A stretch of DNA of 64,000 nucleotides, from contig CP009479.1 in the NCBI GenBank assembly GCA_000965745.1, positions 1,856,001-1,920,000 on the forward strand, read 5' to 3'. Within the stretch, counting starts at the first letter, position 1. The number at the start of each line of letters is the position of its first letter. The stretch is from an uncultured archaeon. GTDB taxonomy: Archaea > Thermoplasmatota > Thermoplasmata > Thermoplasmatales > Thermoplasmataceae. This document shows positions 16,004 to 38,413 of this stretch, in pieces. Position numbers and translations under genes: made by a program. The notes beneath the pieces were generated by a model. That model saw only the letters and a program-made list of their open reading frames with translations. It was not told the origin of the DNA and made no database searches.

Positions 16004-16525
16004 TCACCTTGTAGTGTGGAGAATGTTTTCCAGGCTCCTTTTGCAATTTGGGCAGCAGGCATAGTATGTGTTTCCTTTTGTCTGAAGCTTCAGAGGGGCA
16101 TCAAGAATCTGTTTTCTGCAATAGTCGCAGTAAAGGTCAAAGTCAACTTCATTCTCCTCATATCTTGAAAGTTTATGAACAATCTTCATGCTCCTTACCG
16201 GGAATTTTTCGTACATTGCTTCCTTTCTCAAAACAACGAGAAATGTTCCATCGGATAGTTCGATCGATTCGACCATAAATTCCTCTGGGATGTCAAAGAG
16301 ATTTTCAACCTCGGCGAGCACCATTATGTCTTCGTCTTCGGAATCCACGTTTATTGTGAAATTTCTGATTATGCCTCTCTCGACAAGATTGGATATTATT
16401 CGCGAGACAGTGTTCCTGTTCAACCCTGTCATTTCAGCAATCTCGCTTGCTGACCTCCTTGAATCTTCCTTCAATATTCTAAGAATTTTGGATTCATTAT
16501 AGTTTAAGTTAACAGGCCTCTTCAT
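16004..16525 (-). CDS. Lrp/AsnC-type HTH regulator with C-terminal TRASH metal-binding domain (CopT/CopR-like)
   Basis: N-terminal wHTH (DSRRSASEIA...GIIRNFTI); C-terminal CDYC...YYACCPNC. ATG 16525 preferred over the track start 16606. Confidence 0.85.
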   Translation of the reverse strand: MKRPVNLNYNESKILRILKEDSRRSASEIAEMTGLNRNTVSRIISNLVERGIIRNFTINVDSEDEDIMVLAEVENLFDIPEEFMVESIELSDGTFLVVLRKEAMYEKFPVRSMKIVHKLSRYEENEVDFDLYCDYCRKQILDAPLKLQTKGNTYYACCPNCKRSLENILHTTR

Positions 16526-16618
16526 CTCTGATGGGATGTCAAGGTCTAATAAAATCCTCTCCCACGGTTTGTAAAATTTCGTCGGCCGTCCCTGGAATCC
16601 AATCAAACATTTTTAAAA

Positions 16619-17014
16619 ATGAAGCAATACCAGTTTATGTTTTCTTACGAGAGACTTGTTGGCAATGACGTTGAGAACACCTTTGGGAGTCTTTCCGCAA
16701 AGCTGAAAAATGCTGGATATATAGTTCTCTCATTCGTTGACGTTAAAGAAATACTGACAAAGAACTTCGGCGGGGATCACCCGGGCTACTACATACTCAA
16801 TGTCTGCAAACCACCAGCAGCAAGGGACCTGATTGGGGAGAATGAGGACATGGGATTGCTGCTGCCATGCAAGATAGTTCTGATCGAAAAGGGTGAGAAA
16901 ACCCGGGTCATGATGCTCCGCGTATCCGAACTTGCACAGAAGTATCTTGGCAGCGATGGAAAAAAAGCAATGGTGTATGAAGAAGAACTTATTTCGGTAC
17001 TCGACAACCTTTAG
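16619..17014 (+). CDS. DUF302 domain protein
   Basis: ILNVCKP..A and GLLLPCKIV motifs. Confidence 0.85.
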   Translation: MKQYQFMFSYERLVGNDVENTFGSLSAKLKNAGYIVLSFVDVKEILTKNFGGDHPGYYILNVCKPPAARDLIGENEDMGLLLPCKIVLIEKGEKTRVMMLRVSELAQKYLGSDGKKAMVYEEELISVLDNL

Positions 17015-17604: not shown

Positions 17605-18546
17605 TCACCTTGAGCGCAACTTATGGCCAGCAAGGCTTGAACCCATGATAAGCAGATCCTTGGCATTTTCAGATATCCCAATATGACTGAGGAATCCATG
17701 AACCATTCCAGTGGCACGAATACAGGTTACTTTTACAGAATGTTGCTTCAGGGTAGATGCATAGGTCTCGCCCTGATCACGCAGCGGATCAAACTCAGCA
17801 GTGATGACGAGAGTTTCTGGCATGCCTTCATGATTTTTGAATAACATCGGAGAGAAATACGGGCTTGCAATGTCCGCATCATTGTTGATGTAATTCTTGT
17901 GGAACCAGCCCATCATTCCCTCTGTGAGTACATATTCCTTTGAAAACTCTCTGAAAGACTCTGAAGAATAATCGGGCGCGACAACGGGATAATACAGGAC
18001 ACTCAGGGCAGGAACCGGATACCCGTCTTCAACCGACTTGACAGAAAGTGCAGCGCACAAGTTTCCACCCGCACTGTCCCCCATTGTGGCAATCTTGTCT
18101 TTATTTGCCCCAAACTGTTCAGATTTCTCCCTAATCCATCTGTAGGAATCGTACGCATCATTCACAGCCGTTGGAAACTTAAACTCGGGTGCGAGCCTGT
18201 AGCCAACTGAAATTACTTTTGAACCGGAATACCTGGCGATGTGCCTGCAAATGCTGTCATATGCCTCAATGTCACCTATTACAAATCCTCCGCCATGATA
18301 AAACACTATGATGGAATCGCTGGCCGAATCGTCAGAATAAAGCCTGGCATCGAGTTCTGAATCCCTTACCGGTATCTTCATGTCTTCAGATTTCTCAATA
18401 GAGATTTCTGCTCCCAGCATCTGATCGTAGGTCTTTGTCAGTTCCCTGAACTCCTTAGGGTCCACACCTTCCATTGATGTGGGCATTATCTGCATTATCT
18501 GGTCTACCATTTTTTTGATGTCCGGATCAACAGGCATGTTTATCAA
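17605..18546 (-). CDS. HSL-family alpha/beta hydrolase (esterase/lipase)
   Basis: HGGGF, YRLAPE, GDSAGG, DPLRD, HGF. Confidence 0.92.
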   Translation of the reverse strand: MINMPVDPDIKKMVDQIMQIMPTSMEGVDPKEFRELTKTYDQMLGAEISIEKSEDMKIPVRDSELDARLYSDDSASDSIIVFYHGGGFVIGDIEAYDSICRHIARYSGSKVISVGYRLAPEFKFPTAVNDAYDSYRWIREKSEQFGANKDKIATMGDSAGGNLCAALSVKSVEDGYPVPALSVLYYPVVAPDYSSESFREFSKEYVLTEGMMGWFHKNYINNDADIASPYFSPMLFKNHEGMPETLVITAEFDPLRDQGETYASTLKQHSVKVTCIRATGMVHGFLSHIGISENAKDLLIMGSSLAGHKLRSR

Positions 18547-18574: not shown

Positions 18575-19438
18575 TCAATCCGCGCGGTACGGGGTTCCGT
18601 TATCCCAGATGCCCGGGGTCAGGCAGCTTTCCAGGTCCTTCCCTATATCCTGTCTTGAGGCATGATAAATCACGATAAAGCCCCCCTCTTTCCCGTCGTT
18701 TCGGATAAGGGCATTCCTTAAGGATTCAGCGGGCTGAAAAATGTAACCTGACATTCCACGGCTTTTGTAGTTATCCTGGAGCACATAATAGAATTCGTGG
18801 CCTGATTCCGAATATTTCTTGATCATGCCCGCAAGGACAACAAAGTGGCCAACCGACCAGTCATCAAGCTCCATGCATTCCTCCCTGGAAAGAAATTCGA
18901 ACAGGTCCACGGGGGTCTTGAGGAAGGCATTTGAACATGTGAGGTCCACCTGAAGATTCAGAATAATATTCAGATCAGTCTTCTGCAAGTTCTCCCAGAT
19001 TAATTCTCCCACTTTTCTGAAAGCTTCAGAGGTCAGGTTCACTTCATTGTTTCTTGCTGCAAAGAATGGTTTTGCGGAGTACTGGTTTCCAAGGACCTTT
19101 CTTGCTGCCTCCAGAACACCAACAGCACTGGTGCCAAGTTCCTCTTCCCTATCAGAAAACTTCATTTCCAGTGGATAAAAGACTTCTCTTGTCCTGTCAT
19201 CCAGCTCGTCTTCAGATTTCCCTTTTAGTTTCCGGCTGAGTTCATACTCGTCACGGGATATTGTTGTCCCACTCAGTTTTGCCATGATGTCTTCTGAAAG
19301 ATCATATTCAGACTTGGTCTCCAGTGACTGGGCAATCTTGAGAAGAGAGTAGGGGCCGCACGTCTCACTTTTCTGATCCTTAAGGCTACTGAAAGTGCCA
19401 TTTAGCCTCTGGATAGACTTCAGCATCCTGATTTCCAA
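18575..19438 (-). CDS. uncharacterised papain-fold (C39/phytochelatin-synthase-like) Cys-His-Asp protein
   Basis: DQKSETCG, LGTS, VGHFVVLAG, VLQDNY in C39-like order; TTG start at 19438 with GGGAG upstream (ATG 19426 is the alternative); 22 nt after the GS-like stop. Confidence 0.6.
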   Translation of the reverse strand: MEIRMLKSIQRLNGTFSSLKDQKSETCGPYSLLKIAQSLETKSEYDLSEDIMAKLSGTTISRDEYELSRKLKGKSEDELDDRTREVFYPLEMKFSDREEELGTSAVGVLEAARKVLGNQYSAKPFFAARNNEVNLTSEAFRKVGELIWENLQKTDLNIILNLQVDLTCSNAFLKTPVDLFEFLSREECMELDDWSVGHFVVLAGMIKKYSESGHEFYYVLQDNYKSRGMSGYIFQPAESLRNALIRNDGKEGGFIVIYHASRQDIGKDLESCLTPGIWDNGTPYRAD

Positions 19439-19460
19439 ACTTACTCCCGGTTTCCCGGCG

Positions 19461-20849
19461 TCAGATTGGTTCAAGGAATCTGTCAACCTCCCATTTATCG
19501 ACGTTCTTGTAATAATCATCCCACTCTGATTTCCTTACTTTGAGGTACTCATCATACAACAGTTCCCCCATGTACGATCTCAAATCCGAATCTTCCTCAG
19601 CAGCGTGGATGGCTTCAATCAAAGTTGTAGGCAGCATTTCCACCCCTTTCTTCTTCAGTTCACTTTCAGAGAAATCAGCGGGATCATAGTTCAGCGGCTC
19701 CCCGGGATCTATACCGCTTTCAATGCCGTCTATTCCAGCCGCAATCAGGGCACCAATGGCGATATGTGGGTTAGATGAGCAATCCGGGAGCCTGAACTCA
19801 ATTCTGGTCGACTCCGTATCGCCAGGAGGATTGGATGGAATACGAACTGCAACACCCCTGTGGTCGTATCCGTAAGAAACGTGTGCAGGTGCCCAGCTGC
19901 CAGGTATCAACCTTTTGTATGAGTTGGAAAGAGGGTTTTCGAATGCACAAAGCGCCTTCATGTGCTTCATCACACCGCCAATGAAGTTGTAGGCGGTCCT
20001 GCTCAAACCGATTCCCCCTGGATCTTTACCGTCAGACATCACATTTCGGGTTGTGCTCTTGTCGAAGAGAGAAAGGTGAATGTGGAGTCCACTTCCGGGT
20101 GAAGAGTTGTCAACCTTTGGCATGAAACTGGCGACCATGGCTCCCTTCGCTGCGGTTGATTTGATAACGCTCTTCAGAACGATGAACTGGTCTGCTATTT
20201 TTAAAGGTTCGCCATACCTGTAGGTTATTTCAAACTGGGAGCTGCCGTATTCTTTTTTCAGATGCTCGACAACAATCCCCATTTTTTCCAGGTTGCCGGA
20301 CACTTCGTTTAGGAAGGGGGCGGTCTTGTCGATCCCGAGGCTGTCCATCAGCTTGCCGGTAACCACAGGCTTATGATCATTTTCATTGAAAATATAGAAT
20401 TCTGACTCCATTGCGCATTTGGCATACAACCCGAGGCTGTCCAGCCTGCCAATCATCCTTCTCAGGAAAAAGCGAGGATCGGAAGGCGTCGGTTCAAGAT
20501 TTTCAGGTTCCGATAATTCAGTCTGAATCCTCGCAACACCATCGACATGCGGGAGAACAGCGTATGTCGAAATATCGGGCATTAATTTGAATTCTGACGA
20601 TTGTGAGCCATATAGCCCGTCATGGACAAGATGGTCAAGGACGTTGAAAGACTGCTGGGCCCTTGTAACACCTATACCATACCTGACAGCATCTGAAAGA
20701 AAGTCAACAGTTGTTGCCATATTTCTCAGAATCAGGTCAAGGCCCATCCATTCCAGCTTAACAACCCGAATTCCATCCTTCCTCACCTTTTCAACGAACG
20801 CATCAACATTTTTACTGTTCAAATAATCACCATTCTTAAGGAGCGCCAT
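19461..20849 (-). CDS. glutamine synthetase-like gamma-glutamyl-amine ligase
   Basis: ESEFY, EYGSSQFE, FMPK, GSGLHIHLS, NSYKRL, RIEFRLPD; flap reads PGSWAP rather than the GYEAP of true GS. Confidence 0.88.
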   Translation of the reverse strand: MALLKNGDYLNSKNVDAFVEKVRKDGIRVVKLEWMGLDLILRNMATTVDFLSDAVRYGIGVTRAQQSFNVLDHLVHDGLYGSQSSEFKLMPDISTYAVLPHVDGVARIQTELSEPENLEPTPSDPRFFLRRMIGRLDSLGLYAKCAMESEFYIFNENDHKPVVTGKLMDSLGIDKTAPFLNEVSGNLEKMGIVVEHLKKEYGSSQFEITYRYGEPLKIADQFIVLKSVIKSTAAKGAMVASFMPKVDNSSPGSGLHIHLSLFDKSTTRNVMSDGKDPGGIGLSRTAYNFIGGVMKHMKALCAFENPLSNSYKRLIPGSWAPAHVSYGYDHRGVAVRIPSNPPGDTESTRIEFRLPDCSSNPHIAIGALIAAGIDGIESGIDPGEPLNYDPADFSESELKKKGVEMLPTTLIEAIHAAEEDSDLRSYMGELLYDEYLKVRKSEWDDYYKNVDKWEVDRFLEPI

Positions 20850-21015: not shown

Positions 21016-21369
21016 TCAGAATATCTTGTAATACATCAGCACAATTGCAGCTATTATGATGGTGGCTCCAACCGCATATAAAATATAATTCTTCAGAGGG
21101 TAGGGAGGCTTGTAGTTTTCATCCGACAGCATATTCTCAAAGGAGTAATCCTTATCGTTTTTTTCTGCGGGTGCACCTGTAGGTGCCGGCGTTGGGCTTG
21201 GTCTCGCACCCCTCCTTCTTCGCCTGAAGAAGGGGAAAAAGAAGAAAAATGGAAGGAAATATCCGTAACCTGAGTAATGAGGGAAGAATCTTGGAACTAT
21301 AAATATGAGAAGCGCCCAGATCGCAATGTATGCAATCCAGATGAAAGAGCCAATATTTCTTCTGTCCAC
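21016..21369 (-). CDS. small hypothetical membrane protein
   Basis: Hydrophobic N- and C-terminal helices around Phe-run, Arg-run and Pro/Thr/Ala linker. Confidence 0.65.
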   Translation of the reverse strand: MDRRNIGSFIWIAYIAIWALLIFIVPRFFPHYSGYGYFLPFFFFFPFFRRRRRGARPSPTPAPTGAPAEKNDKDYSFENMLSDENYKPPYPLKNYILYAVGATIIIAAIVLMYYKIF

Positions 21370-21457: not shown

Positions 21458-21931
21458 TCACCTTCGCCTTCTGAGTATGTTGCACACCCACCCTTCAGGA
21501 GCTCTGGCCTGTTCAATCTCAAATAGAATAAGCCTTGCCTGGGTGCTTGCGTCCTGTTTTTCCAGTTCCTGGTAAACAGTCTGTTCTTCGGCTTCATTAT
21601 GGGCATCCAGAACTCTTATCAGGCCCTCTACCCTGTCAGTTGCCAGCTCACCCCGCCCCGCGTTGAGATATTCCTCTATCTTGTCGAGGAGTTTCCATAT
21701 CCCGCCATGTTCTACCTCCAGGCCATGAATCCTTGCGGCGTTCGCCTGATTTTCAACGGTTCTGAAAAGGATGGACTCCTCCCAGAATATGTGGTTTTGG
21801 AGGCTGTTCCTGGCTTTTTCGAAACAGGACACCGACGGTTTTCCTTCTCTTAAGGAGTCCAGAAAACAGGTAAGTGATTCGCCTACGCGCTTGTGATCTT
21901 CTTCCAGAATGTCTGAGAGCAATTGCCCCAC
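21458..21931 (-). CDS. hemerythrin/HHE domain protein
   Basis: EDH, HIFWEE..LF, EH, HNEAEE..VY repeats. Confidence 0.85.
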   Translation of the reverse strand: MGQLLSDILEEDHKRVGESLTCFLDSLREGKPSVSCFEKARNSLQNHIFWEESILFRTVENQANAARIHGLEVEHGGIWKLLDKIEEYLNAGRGELATDRVEGLIRVLDAHNEAEEQTVYQELEKQDASTQARLILFEIEQARAPEGWVCNILRRRR

Positions 21932-22047
21932 CCAATGGCTTATATCGGAACTGTATCTAAATTTAGCCCATTGGCAAATTGTAATCCCGGATATTTGCTC
22001 AGGATAATTTTGTGAATATATTTATACAGTATTCGGGTTGGTCAACC

Positions 22048-22836
22048 ATGAAAGAAAGTGACATTCCCGGGAAATCTTCATTGCTTATGGGAAAAGTAGC
22101 GCTTGTTACTGGCGCAAGCCAGGGGATAGGAAGGGCTATAGCCATCGCATTCCAGAGGGAAGGTGCTCAGGTTGTAGTGCATTACAAGGGTTCTGAAAAC
22201 AGGAAAGATGCAGAGAATCTTAAAGTTGAGCTAGAAAGGTTGGGAGATACATCTCCGCTTCTGGTACAGGGTGATGTCACAATTGAGGATGACGTAAAAA
22301 AGGCAGTAGACTCAGTAATGGACAAGATAGGCCGCATTGACATACTTGTAAATAATGCAGGCGTCCTTAGCCAGTATGAGGTGCATAAAATGCCAGTAGA
22401 TGAGTGGGACCGAATAATAGGGACCAATCTGCGGAGCGTATTCCTCTTCACAAGGCTGGTTGTGCCCGGTATGATTGAGCGCAAGTGGGGAAGAATCATA
22501 AACATCGCATCACAGCTGGGACAGATCGGAGGTGAGGAGATGGCACATTACAGTGCTTCCAAAGCAGGCATTATAGGTTTTACCAAGTCTATAGCGAGAG
22601 AGCTTGGAAAGCACAACATAACAGCCAACTGCATCGCCCCGGGACCTATAGAAACGGACATGCTCAAAGAAGAGACGGATGAGTGGAGGAACTCAAAGCT
22701 TTCGGAGCTTCCACTCAAGAGATTCGGGTATCCAGAAGAGGTGGCGCCCACTGCCGTGCTGCTTGCATCGGACCCCCGAGGAAACCTTTACACTGGACAG
22801 ACGCTGGGGCCGAACAGTGGCGACGTTATGCTCTGA
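22048..22836 (+). CDS. short-chain dehydrogenase/reductase (FabG-like)
   Basis: TGASQGIG, NNAG, YSASK, IAPGPIET. Confidence 0.92.
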   Translation: MKESDIPGKSSLLMGKVALVTGASQGIGRAIAIAFQREGAQVVVHYKGSENRKDAENLKVELERLGDTSPLLVQGDVTIEDDVKKAVDSVMDKIGRIDILVNNAGVLSQYEVHKMPVDEWDRIIGTNLRSVFLFTRLVVPGMIERKWGRIINIASQLGQIGGEEMAHYSASKAGIIGFTKSIARELGKHNITANCIAPGPIETDMLKEETDEWRNSKLSELPLKRFGYPEEVAPTAVLLASDPRGNLYTGQTLGPNSGDVML

Positions 22837-36158: not shown

Positions 36159-37457
36159 ATGATGAAAGGATCAGCAAAAGTGGGAACCGCAAACTTTAAT
36201 GAGAAAGATATCCGATCAGTATTGAAGCGTTATCTGGAGGTAAGAGAATACACTGAAAGCCTCTGCAAGGGATTGAAGACCGAGGACTACGTGGTCCAGT
36301 CCAGCTTCGAGGTAAGCCCCATAAAATGGCATCTTGCCCATACAACCTGGTTCTTTGAGACTTTTATTCTCAAACCGTATAAAACTAGATTCCATCCTTT
36401 TAATGATGCATTTGACTACCTGTTCAATTCCTATTATGAAACAGTCGGTCAATATTTCCCCAAGGGGATGAGAGGGACCCTCTCAAGACCAACTGTTGAT
36501 GAAGTCTTCTCCTACAGGAAATTCGTGGACGAAAACGTAATCTCAATTGCTGATCAGGAAAACCTGCCTGATGAGATCACGCAGCGGTTGATCATTGGAA
36601 TAAACCATGAGCAGCAGCACGAAGAGCTGATGCTGATGGATCTGAAGTACAACTTTTACAGAAACCCCCTAAAGCCGGAATATGCCCCGTATAAACCCTA
36701 CGAAGGGCCAAAGCCACCAGAACTTACATGGCTTGAATTTGAGGGAGGGATAGTTGAGATCGGCCATGATTCCGATGAATTCGCCTTCGACAACGAATCC
36801 CCAAGGCACAAGGCATACCTTGAACCCTACAGAATAGCTTCAAGGCTTGTGACAAACGGTGAGTACCTTGAGTTCATGGAGGCCGGCGGATATTCCGACC
36901 CCAAGCTGTGGCTTTCTGAGGGGTGGCACAAGATAAACAGCGATAAATGGAGAGCCCCTTTGTACTGGGATGAAAAGAAGGACGGTTGGTATGTTTTCAC
37001 GCTTTCTGGTGAGCGGAAGATGGACCCGGAGGAGCCGGTCAGCCATGTCAGCTTCTACGAAGCCTTGGCGTATGCTAACTGGAAAGGAAAGCGGCTTCCC
37101 ACTGAAGAGGAGTGGGAGCATGCCATGCGTGATGTTGATCAATCTCCTGGCGATAACTTTGCAGAAACGTGCTATTTAAGGCCAGTTCCACCATCGGTTT
37201 CAGGAAAGAAGATCCTCCAGGGTTTCGGAGACCTTTGGGAATGGACTTATAGTTCATACATGCCATATCCGGGAACAAGGGCACTGCCTGGTTCGCTTGG
37301 GGAGTACAATATTAAATTCATGGCTAACCAGATGGTGCTTAGGGGAGGGGCATGTGTTACCCCTCAATCCCACATAAGAAGAACATACAGGAATTTCTTC
37401 CACCTCGGTGAAAGATGGCCGTTTACTGGTATAAGACTTGCAGAGGATCTTTCATGA
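36159..37457 (+). CDS. egtB: ergothioneine biosynthesis sulfoxide synthase
   Basis: DinB-like WHLAHTTWFFETF, FNSYY, Fe ligands HEQQH, FGE-sulfatase domain (FDNE.PRH, RLPTE.EWE, EYN.KFM, LRGG, YRNFF). Confidence 0.93.
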   Translation: MMKGSAKVGTANFNEKDIRSVLKRYLEVREYTESLCKGLKTEDYVVQSSFEVSPIKWHLAHTTWFFETFILKPYKTRFHPFNDAFDYLFNSYYETVGQYFPKGMRGTLSRPTVDEVFSYRKFVDENVISIADQENLPDEITQRLIIGINHEQQHEELMLMDLKYNFYRNPLKPEYAPYKPYEGPKPPELTWLEFEGGIVEIGHDSDEFAFDNESPRHKAYLEPYRIASRLVTNGEYLEFMEAGGYSDPKLWLSEGWHKINSDKWRAPLYWDEKKDGWYVFTLSGERKMDPEEPVSHVSFYEALAYANWKGKRLPTEEEWEHAMRDVDQSPGDNFAETCYLRPVPPSVSGKKILQGFGDLWEWTYSSYMPYPGTRALPGSLGEYNIKFMANQMVLRGGACVTPQSHIRRTYRNFFHLGERWPFTGIRLAEDLS

Positions 37458-38413
37458 CTGCCGAAAACGTTGAATTCATTGACATGAAGCCTGAATTGGC
37501 CAGTTTCAGGGATGAAGTCCTCCAAGGCCTTTCCAAAAACCCTAAGAGAATTCCTCCCAAATTTTTTTACGATGACCGCGGGTCAGAGCTTTTTGTGAAG
37601 ATTACACGTACCCCGGAGTATTATGTTACCAGGACAGAGGAGGAAATTCTTGGAAAGTTTGGTGAGGAAATATCGGAAACCATTGGCAAGGGCACTTTCG
37701 TGATTGAGTATGGCAGCGGGAACAGCGAGAAGACCAGCATGCTGATTTCTTCACTGGATTCGCCTTTCGCATATGTCCTTATTGATATTTCGTCCGATGC
37801 GGTCAGAAATTCAGCAGACTTACTGTCTTCAAGATTCCCGGACCTGAAAATAATCTCTATCTGTGCTGACTATCTGAGAATGCATGAAATACCAGAGCAG
37901 GACCCCAACAGGAAAAAGGTGATAGTTTTTCTAGGCTCCACAATTGGAAACTTCGAGCCGGACGATGCCAAAGGGTTCCTGGAGCTGGTTCAGAGTGAGC
38001 TTAATGACGGAGATGGCATGCTTGTAGGCGTGGACCTTCGGAAGGATGTTAAAACGCTTAACGCGGCATACAATGATTCTGAAGGATATACCGCCAGGTT
38101 CAACCTGAACCTTCTGCGAAGGATTGGTAAAGAGCTGGAAACTGACATCAATCCTGAGAAATTTGCCCATAAAGCATATTACAACAGGGAACTAGGGCGG
38201 ATAGAAATGCACCTTGTAAGCCTGGAAAATCAGGAAGTCATGATAGAGGGCATGAAATTCCGCTTCGACAGGGGAGAAACAATCCATACAGAAAGTTCCT
38301 ACAAATATACTGTCGAGGACTTTTCAAGACTTGCCGAAAAGTCCGGGCTGAAAGTGAAAAAGAACTGGCAGGATTCCAGGGGATACTTCAGCCTTCTCTA
38401 CCTTACTAAGTGA
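37454..38413 (+). CDS. egtD: L-histidine N-alpha-trimethyltransferase
   Basis: PPKFFYD.RGSELF, PEYY.TRTE, EYGSG, FLGSTIGN, AYND..G.TA.FN.N, RIEMHL, IHTE.SYKY; ATGA overlap with egtB. Confidence 0.93.
   Translation: MTAENVEFIDMKPELASFRDEVLQGLSKNPKRIPPKFFYDDRGSELFVKITRTPEYYVTRTEEEILGKFGEEISETIGKGTFVIEYGSGNSEKTSMLISSLDSPFAYVLIDISSDAVRNSADLLSSRFPDLKIISICADYLRMHEIPEQDPNRKKVIVFLGSTIGNFEPDDAKGFLELVQSELNDGDGMLVGVDLRKDVKTLNAAYNDSEGYTARFNLNLLRRIGKELETDINPEKFAHKAYYNRELGRIEMHLVSLENQEVMIEGMKFRFDRGETIHTESSYKYTVEDFSRLAEKSGLKVKKNWQDSRGYFSLLYLTK

Follow-up and report, generated by a model that had tools for sequence, protein, structure and literature searches.

What is made, or unmade, by a glutamine synthetase (GS)-like enzyme and a DUF6885 protein encoded directly beside it? 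The question is raised by a locus in a 64,000-nucleotide stretch (hereafter the window; contig CP009479.1 of assembly GCA_000965745.1, positions 1,856,001 to 1,920,000) from an uncultured, acidophilic archaeon of the Thermoplasmataceae, in which two minus-strand genes, a GS-like ligase (19461-20849) and the DUF6885 gene (18575-19474), follow one another in the same orientation with the ligase as the upstream member; both open reading frames are real. A sequence-only reading of this DNA had proposed a gamma-glutamyl ligase working with a papain-like, C39-like or phytochelatin-synthase-like partner, either in amine catabolism or in the synthesis of a gamma-glutamyl metabolite. The answer developed here is that the two genes would form a gamma-glutamyl-amine module in which the DUF6885 protein, as a hydrolase or transferase, would process the ligase product by way of a thioester, with a PuuD-like role in this archaeon, an assignment that we hold at about even confidence.

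The ligase (P0001, 462 aa) carries a strong match to the GS catalytic domain (PF00120, 3.4e-95) and falls under all NCBIfam equivalog cut-offs. Its top model is gamma-glutamylputrescine synthetase (GGputSyn, NF045547; 339.5 bits against a cut-off of 650), and the models for type I GS (GlnA, TIGR00653; 299.7 bits against 429) and type III GS (298 bits against 470) are likewise not reached. The closest solved sequence relative is the glutamate-methylamine ligase 9qur (1.9e-67), which has a W-A-P flap in common with the window protein. We aligned the window ligase, six further ligases linked to DUF6885 and the canonical GS (L008) encoded at another place in the window's genome. The metal, ATP and glutamate residues E148, E150, E200, E207, H256, R313, R331, R336 and E351 are invariant in this alignment, and the flap reads PGSWAPAH, with Trp318 replacing the flap glutamate, whereas the canonical GS and solved GS structures have PGYEAP; the complete set of GS motifs with a WAP flap described earlier is thus borne out. 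The DGSS ammonium loop (Asp50'/Ser53'), kept in the canonical GS, is replaced in the window ligase. Among the DUF6885-linked ligases examined, seven in all, the flap residue is always Trp or Phe and the DGSS loop is always missing, and 6/7 score highest against the gamma-glutamylputrescine synthetase model. Because every ligand is invariant, the flap position is Trp or Phe and the ammonium loop is gone, the window protein is, by its sequence, a GS-like amine ligase of the PuuA/GlnA3/GMAS type rather than a second GS, and its predicted activity is probably the joining of glutamate to an organic amine.

The DUF6885 gene (P0099) has a longest open reading frame of 18575-19519. The two genes had been described as co-oriented and 22 nt apart; the orientation stands, whereas the spacing does not, as the gap follows from a TTG start at 19438. 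The TTG at 19474 is favoured because 13 close homologues share a conserved N-terminal extension (M-N-x-S-D-A-G ... E-x-R) that maps onto it and because a GGGAGGT Shine-Dalgarno-like site, read from the sequence, lies 11 nt upstream (19486-19492, minus strand). This start yields a 299-aa protein and makes the DUF6885 gene begin 14 nt before the ligase gene ends (19461-19474, minus strand), and an identical 14-nt overlap is found at three other archaeal loci (L004, L006 and L011). The ligase and DUF6885 genes are regarded as translationally coupled. The sole Pfam match of the partner is DUF6885 (PF21819; 105.1 bits where 27 are required, covering positions 4-251 of a 251-position profile), which places it in that family. 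It had no match in the NCBIfam profile search, neither the protein nor the family profile drew a meaningful hit when searched by sequence against the PDB, and a literature search found no paper that mentions DUF6885. The protein is a single domain with a hydrophilic N-terminus; as the sequence-only reading had noted, it contains no ABC domain, and no ABC gene was seen around the window pair or in the related loci examined (L004, L011 and others).

An AlphaFold model of DUF6885, built on a 62-sequence family alignment and numbered from the TTG 19474 start, is confident (mean pLDDT 96.1, pTM 0.93). An exhaustive structural search placed the Nostoc phytochelatin-synthase-like protein Alr0975 first (Z 15.5, rmsd 2.6 over 174 residues) and the structure 22oc second (Z 14.7), the latter labelled a 'CD lyase', a term for which a literature search found nothing. 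The C39 peptidase domains of ComA and PCAT1 (Z 12-12.6), the pseudomurein isopeptidase PeiR (Z 12.6) and many papain-clan enzymes (Z at least 8) follow, and Foldseek and ESM Atlas agree, with Atlas matches that include phytochelatin families. In the model, Cys39 stands at the N-terminus of helix 39-50, His210 starts strand 209-222 and Asp234 comes after the strand that pairs with it, as in the papain-like (clan CA) fold, so that the fold proposed from sequence is upheld. The motifs on which that proposal rested, DQKSETCG (Q-x4-CG), LGTSAVG, VGHFVVLAG and the downstream aspartate in LQDNY, are all present and are not there by chance, because their candidate residues are kept family-wide: in the 62-member alignment Gln34 is conserved in 60/60, Cys39 in 61/61, His210 in 62/62 and an acidic residue at position 234 in 62/62 (Asp in 55, Glu in 7). 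Asn173, Arg258, Gln247 and a C-terminal W-D-N-G motif are also near-invariant. The model therefore supports DUF6885 as a papain-like cysteine enzyme with Gln-Cys-His-Asp as the candidate catalytic set.

By sequence, DUF6885 lies outside the named families of comparable fold or role. There is no match at E <= 0.01 to phytochelatin synthase (PF05023, MEROPS C83) and none to peptidase C39 (PF03412 or PF13529), and the papain-like fold sets it apart from PuuD and peptidase C26 (PF07722). An hhalign comparison with cyanobacterial phytochelatin synthase is insignificant (probability 0.5%) and serves as a consistency check only; it lays the GHF motif on GHFSP and Asp234 on the catalytic aspartate of a triad that is Cys56/His162/Asp180 in phytochelatin synthase (PMC3855540).

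The link between DUF6885 and GS-like genes is strong. A GS-like gene adjoins DUF6885 in 7/8 diverse lineages; loci with such a neighbour are those of the window lineage, L004/L005, L006, L010 (partial), L011, L022, L024/L025, L026 and L007, and they include two other Thermoplasmataceae lineages known from metagenome-assembled genomes and a cyanobacterial metagenome-assembled genome (L007). A scan with a 16-sequence bacterial subset as the query retrieved 80 high-GC soil-metagenome loci (L045-L124); where the downstream flank reaches 600 nt or more (55 loci), the gene that immediately follows DUF6885 on its strand is GS-like in 53 cases. The ligase comes first in the archaeal clade and DUF6885 first in the bacterial clade, and this reversal speaks for the two being kept together by selection and not merely by inherited synteny. 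Identities of the ligase and of DUF6885 to the window copies drop in the same lineage order, consistent with inheritance as a unit. Because the pair turns up in archaea, in cyanobacteria and in soil bacteria, the two proteins almost certainly act on the same compound, in a reaction that is predicted. No fused ligase-DUF6885 protein was found in a search of longer proteins, which is weak evidence; a 1351-aa match (P0025) considered as such a fusion proved to be a repetitive artefact. A predicted complex of the two proteins scored 0.01, which counts neither for nor against the pairing.

DUF6885 is a rare and patchy family. Among 1.84 billion cluster representatives, 85 match the window protein at E <= 1e-3, and the domain occurs in 3/41 relatives, 3/401 Thermoplasmatota-level genomes and 2/401 cyanobacteria. 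It is found mostly in neutral soil bacteria and is absent from most Thermoplasmatota searched. Within the genus of the window, the ligase, DUF6885 and a short-chain dehydrogenase are all present in two genomes (G002 and G003) and all absent from a third (G001).

The genes that recur around the pair belong to transport and catabolism. Amino-acid permeases lie near DUF6885 in L007, L011 and L022, class-III aminotransferases in L022, short-chain dehydrogenases near the pair in the window, L004 and L011, and an aldehyde dehydrogenase in L018. By analogy with the Puu pathway and the Streptomyces GlnA2/3/4 systems, in which amines are catabolized via gamma-glutamylation (PMC5403932, PMC8998196, PMC6529630), these recurrent neighbours are a signature of gamma-glutamylation-based amine catabolism. 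No glutathione or cysteine genes were seen near any DUF6885 locus. The suggestion that the pair makes an osmolyte or metal-binding thiol for an acidophile accordingly finds no support: most bearers are soil bacteria, the neighbours are catabolic and there is no link to cysteine or glutathione. At one soil locus (L121:2373-4657) an Orn/Lys/Arg decarboxylase gene overlaps DUF6885 and the GS-like gene is not in that place, another hint that DUF6885 handles di- or polyamines. On a Logan contig from SRR22388066 (L040:1-10193), DUF6885 lies inside a complete aldehyde-processing bacterial-microcompartment operon that runs from a GS-like gene through a PduL-type phosphotransacylase, microcompartment shell proteins, an aldehyde dehydrogenase, a PduS-like flavoprotein and four EutN/CcmL genes to DUF6885, acetate kinase, an ornithine-cyclodeaminase/mu-crystallin gene and GntR. 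Judged by its gene content, this operon may be an uncharacterised amine-utilisation metabolosome; a literature search found no microcompartment paper linking GS-like genes to DUF6885. We also note a larger amine and amino-acid island in an archaeal genome (G863; L022:1244-12888), comprising a Pab87-type beta-lactamase-fold peptidase, two orphans, the GS-like ligase, DUF6885, a class-III aminotransferase, an amino-acid permease, a metallophosphoesterase, a second aminotransferase and an alcohol dehydrogenase.

At the window locus itself, the short-chain dehydrogenase gene (22012-22836, plus strand; adh_short, 2e-62) is divergent from the pair and is a possible pathway member: it stands at the matching position in L004 and L011, and its orthologues (73-77% identity) are confined to the two congeners in which the ligase/DUF6885 pair is found. 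A hemerythrin-domain gene (21458-21931, minus strand; PF01814), upstream of the ligase and on its strand, and a 117-aa orphan between the two (21016-21369, minus strand; no Pfam or NCBIfam match) are of uncertain operon membership; both recur in the same order and place in one congener only (L004). A hormone-sensitive-lipase-type esterase (17605-18546, minus strand; Abhydrolase_3, 3e-69; LipP1, 302 bits) begins 28 nt downstream of DUF6885, is not downstream of the pair in L004 or L006, and is not conserved with it outside the genus. On this comparison of loci, the esterase, the hemerythrin gene and the orphan are not counted as core of the pair. Just past the esterase, and divergent from a DUF302 gene, lies a winged-helix regulator with an archaeal TRASH domain, of the metal-responsive type (16004-17014); in other loci it shows no link to the ligase/DUF6885 pair. 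An ergothioneine pathway, with the ligase as EgtA and DUF6885 as EgtC, was considered because of egtB-egtD at 36159-38413, 17 kb off, and was rejected, because egtD is present in 14/41 relatives and widespread in those without the pair, including a congener and ten other genera. By gene content, the capacity for ergothioneine synthesis is widespread within this archaeal family and has nothing to do with the ligase/DUF6885 pair.

From these observations we infer the substrate, the bond cut and the alternative outcomes of hydrolysis or transfer as follows. The GS-like enzyme would activate the gamma-carboxyl of glutamate with ATP and join glutamate to an amine instead of ammonia; diamines, polyamines, amino alcohols and compounds like them are the likeliest acceptors. 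In the cytoplasmic DUF6885 protein, the thiolate of Cys39, activated by His210 and Asp234 and with Gln34 as the oxyanion residue, would attack the amide carbonyl of the glutamylated compound or of an oxidised derivative, and the resulting thioester would be hydrolysed or its acyl group handed to an acceptor. No true PuuD/C26 hydrolase gene was found in the genome, where only generic amidotransferase (PF07722) matches of 22 bits occur; this, together with a gene for a Cys-nucleophile enzyme overlapping that of the ligase, makes DUF6885 the obvious candidate deglutamylase. In an archaeon that lacks a PuuD-type hydrolase and has no M20 gene beside the pair, it would most likely fill the PuuD role and release glutamate.

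Several observations weigh against this assignment. Phytochelatin synthase, whose fold DUF6885 most resembles, cuts the bond after the gamma-glutamylated residue and not the gamma-glutamyl bond itself. In one cyanobacterium (L018), no GS-like gene occurs within 7 kb of DUF6885, whose neighbours are an Amt-family transporter on one side and an aldehyde dehydrogenase on the other. The weightiest objection lies in the bacterial loci, which offer another enzyme for the hydrolytic step. M20 enzymes are known to hydrolyse gamma-glutamyl or N-acyl amino-acid bonds. An M20 amidohydrolase gene (TIGR01891, N-acyl-amino-acid type; 233 bits) usually follows the ligase in the soil clade, in about 30 loci, and also stands beside the pair in L024 and L026; in the soil loci DUF6885, the GS-like ligase and M20 thereby make up a conserved trio (for example L077:4911-8243), often with TetR or MFS genes near. 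One locus (L047) keeps DUF6885 and M20 and has no ligase. With M20 as a possible bacterial deglutamylase, DUF6885 may perform some other amide-directed step.

Such a step could lie upstream of the ligase, with DUF6885 as an amidase or peptidase that frees the amine from an amide, N-acyl compound or peptide, the ligase capturing it and M20, in bacteria, deglutamylating the product later. The bacterial order DUF6885, ligase, M20 matches this sequence of events, M20 is a credible deglutamylase at its 233 bits, L047 retains just the two hydrolase candidates, and the C39 and C1 fold matches are to peptide-bond hydrolases. The archaeal arrangement speaks for a different order of events, with the ligase first, the 14-nt overlap and no M20 near; an upstream amidase would leave this genome without an identified deglutamylase, and no conserved precursor-related gene was found. 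We consider it rather unlikely. A transferase resembling phytochelatin synthase or transglutaminase, moving an acyl unit from a gamma-glutamyl compound to a second amine or peptide in a biosynthetic reaction, is less probable still and to be regarded as quite unlikely. The nearest solved fold, Alr0975 (Z 15.5), does form a gamma-Glu-Cys acyl-enzyme, phytochelatin families appear among the Atlas matches, and the weak hhalign alignment sets His210 on the histidine of GHFSP and Asp234 on the catalytic aspartate; against this, that alignment has a probability of 0.5% and PF05023 is not matched, the neighbours are transport and catabolic genes with no cysteine or glutathione gene link, a rare and patchy family is unlike a core protective metabolite, and the egtD-bearing relatives (14/41) mostly lack DUF6885.

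A macromolecular target, with DUF6885 as an isopeptidase removing glutamate-linked tags from protein or cell envelope or as a protease acting on the ligase itself to process or regulate it, would draw on the matches to isopeptidases and tag-removing enzymes (PeiR, Z 12.6; UfSP, ZUFSP and Atg4, Z 8-10.6) and on the overlap of the two genes. It is made very unlikely by the small amines that studied GS-like ligases of the PF00120 type use (PMC5403932, PMC6529630, PMC11335346) and by neighbours that are small-molecule transporters and aminotransferases; the lack of any fused form in the search of longer proteins points the same way, as weak evidence. Last, the ligase might be an ordinary second GS whose adjacency to DUF6885 is incidental. 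A strong PF00120 match and a GlnA score of 300 bits would suit an ammonia-dependent enzyme, whereas the score lies under the GlnA cut-off of 429, the flap glutamate and ammonium loop are lost, a canonical GS is encoded elsewhere, and the adjacency is conserved across domains in two gene orders. This explanation is highly improbable, and the sequence-only reading of a PuuA- or GMAS-like, non-ammonia ligase is the one that the comparison sustains.

The gamma-glutamyl-amine module with DUF6885 acting on the ligase product has partial counterparts among known systems. Like E. coli PuuA/PuuD, Streptomyces GlnA2/3/4 and the NpaA1-type arylamine ligases, it sets an ATP-dependent GS-like amine ligase beside a gene for an amide-cleaving enzyme with a cysteine nucleophile, in the case of DUF6885 a predicted one, and Puu-type systems likewise have permease and redox or aminotransferase genes nearby. 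It differs from them in that the partner has a papain fold instead of a class-I glutamine-amidotransferase (C26) fold, the ligase scores 339 bits against the 650 required, and bacterial DUF6885 versions add M20. GMAS (9qur), the best solved relative of the ligase, shares the W-A-P flap at an identity of only about 30-35%, and partners N-methylglutamate-pathway genes, not a papain-fold enzyme. On the side of the partner, the closest counterpart is the Nostoc 'primitive phytochelatin synthase' Alr0975 (C83, PF05023; PDB 2btw, 6tho), which shares a Gln...Cys arrangement with the cysteine at the start of a helix, a strand bearing the GHF histidine and an Asp after it. Alr0975 handles a gamma-glutamyl substrate through a thioester. 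It has no detectable sequence relationship to DUF6885, its spacing is Q-x5-C where DUF6885 has Q-x4-C, and helical insertions add about 60 residues to DUF6885, which also has a longer His-Asp hairpin and no glutathione context. The C39 and C39_2 double-glycine leader peptidases (ComA, PCAT1) have a compact papain-like core with the same Gln/Cys/His/Asp arrangement; DUF6885 is twice their size and has no ABC fusion or neighbour and no leader-peptide gene. As far as the literature was searched, the pairing of a GS-like ligase with a papain-fold partner appears to be new, the ligase itself being of a known type.

Gamma-glutamylation is the main route for the detoxification and use of polyamines, amino alcohols and arylamines in many bacteria, and to our knowledge a hydrolase of the class-I amidotransferase fold removes the glutamate in every case studied. 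The DUF6885 family has another fold, and in archaea, cyanobacteria and abundant soil bacteria it is tied to such amine ligases. Tentatively, and with more doubt than confidence, it could represent a new class of papain-fold gamma-glutamyl-amide enzymes that forms with the ligase a pair writing and erasing glutamate tags on amines, and in some bacteria gives an uncharacterised microcompartment (L040) its signature chemistry; in the extreme form of this proposal, the targets may be protein or cell-envelope amines and not small molecules. Assigning the reaction of DUF6885 would annotate a domain of unknown function, would fill the missing hydrolase step in organisms without PuuD, and could reveal new amide chemistry on a phytochelatin-synthase-like scaffold.

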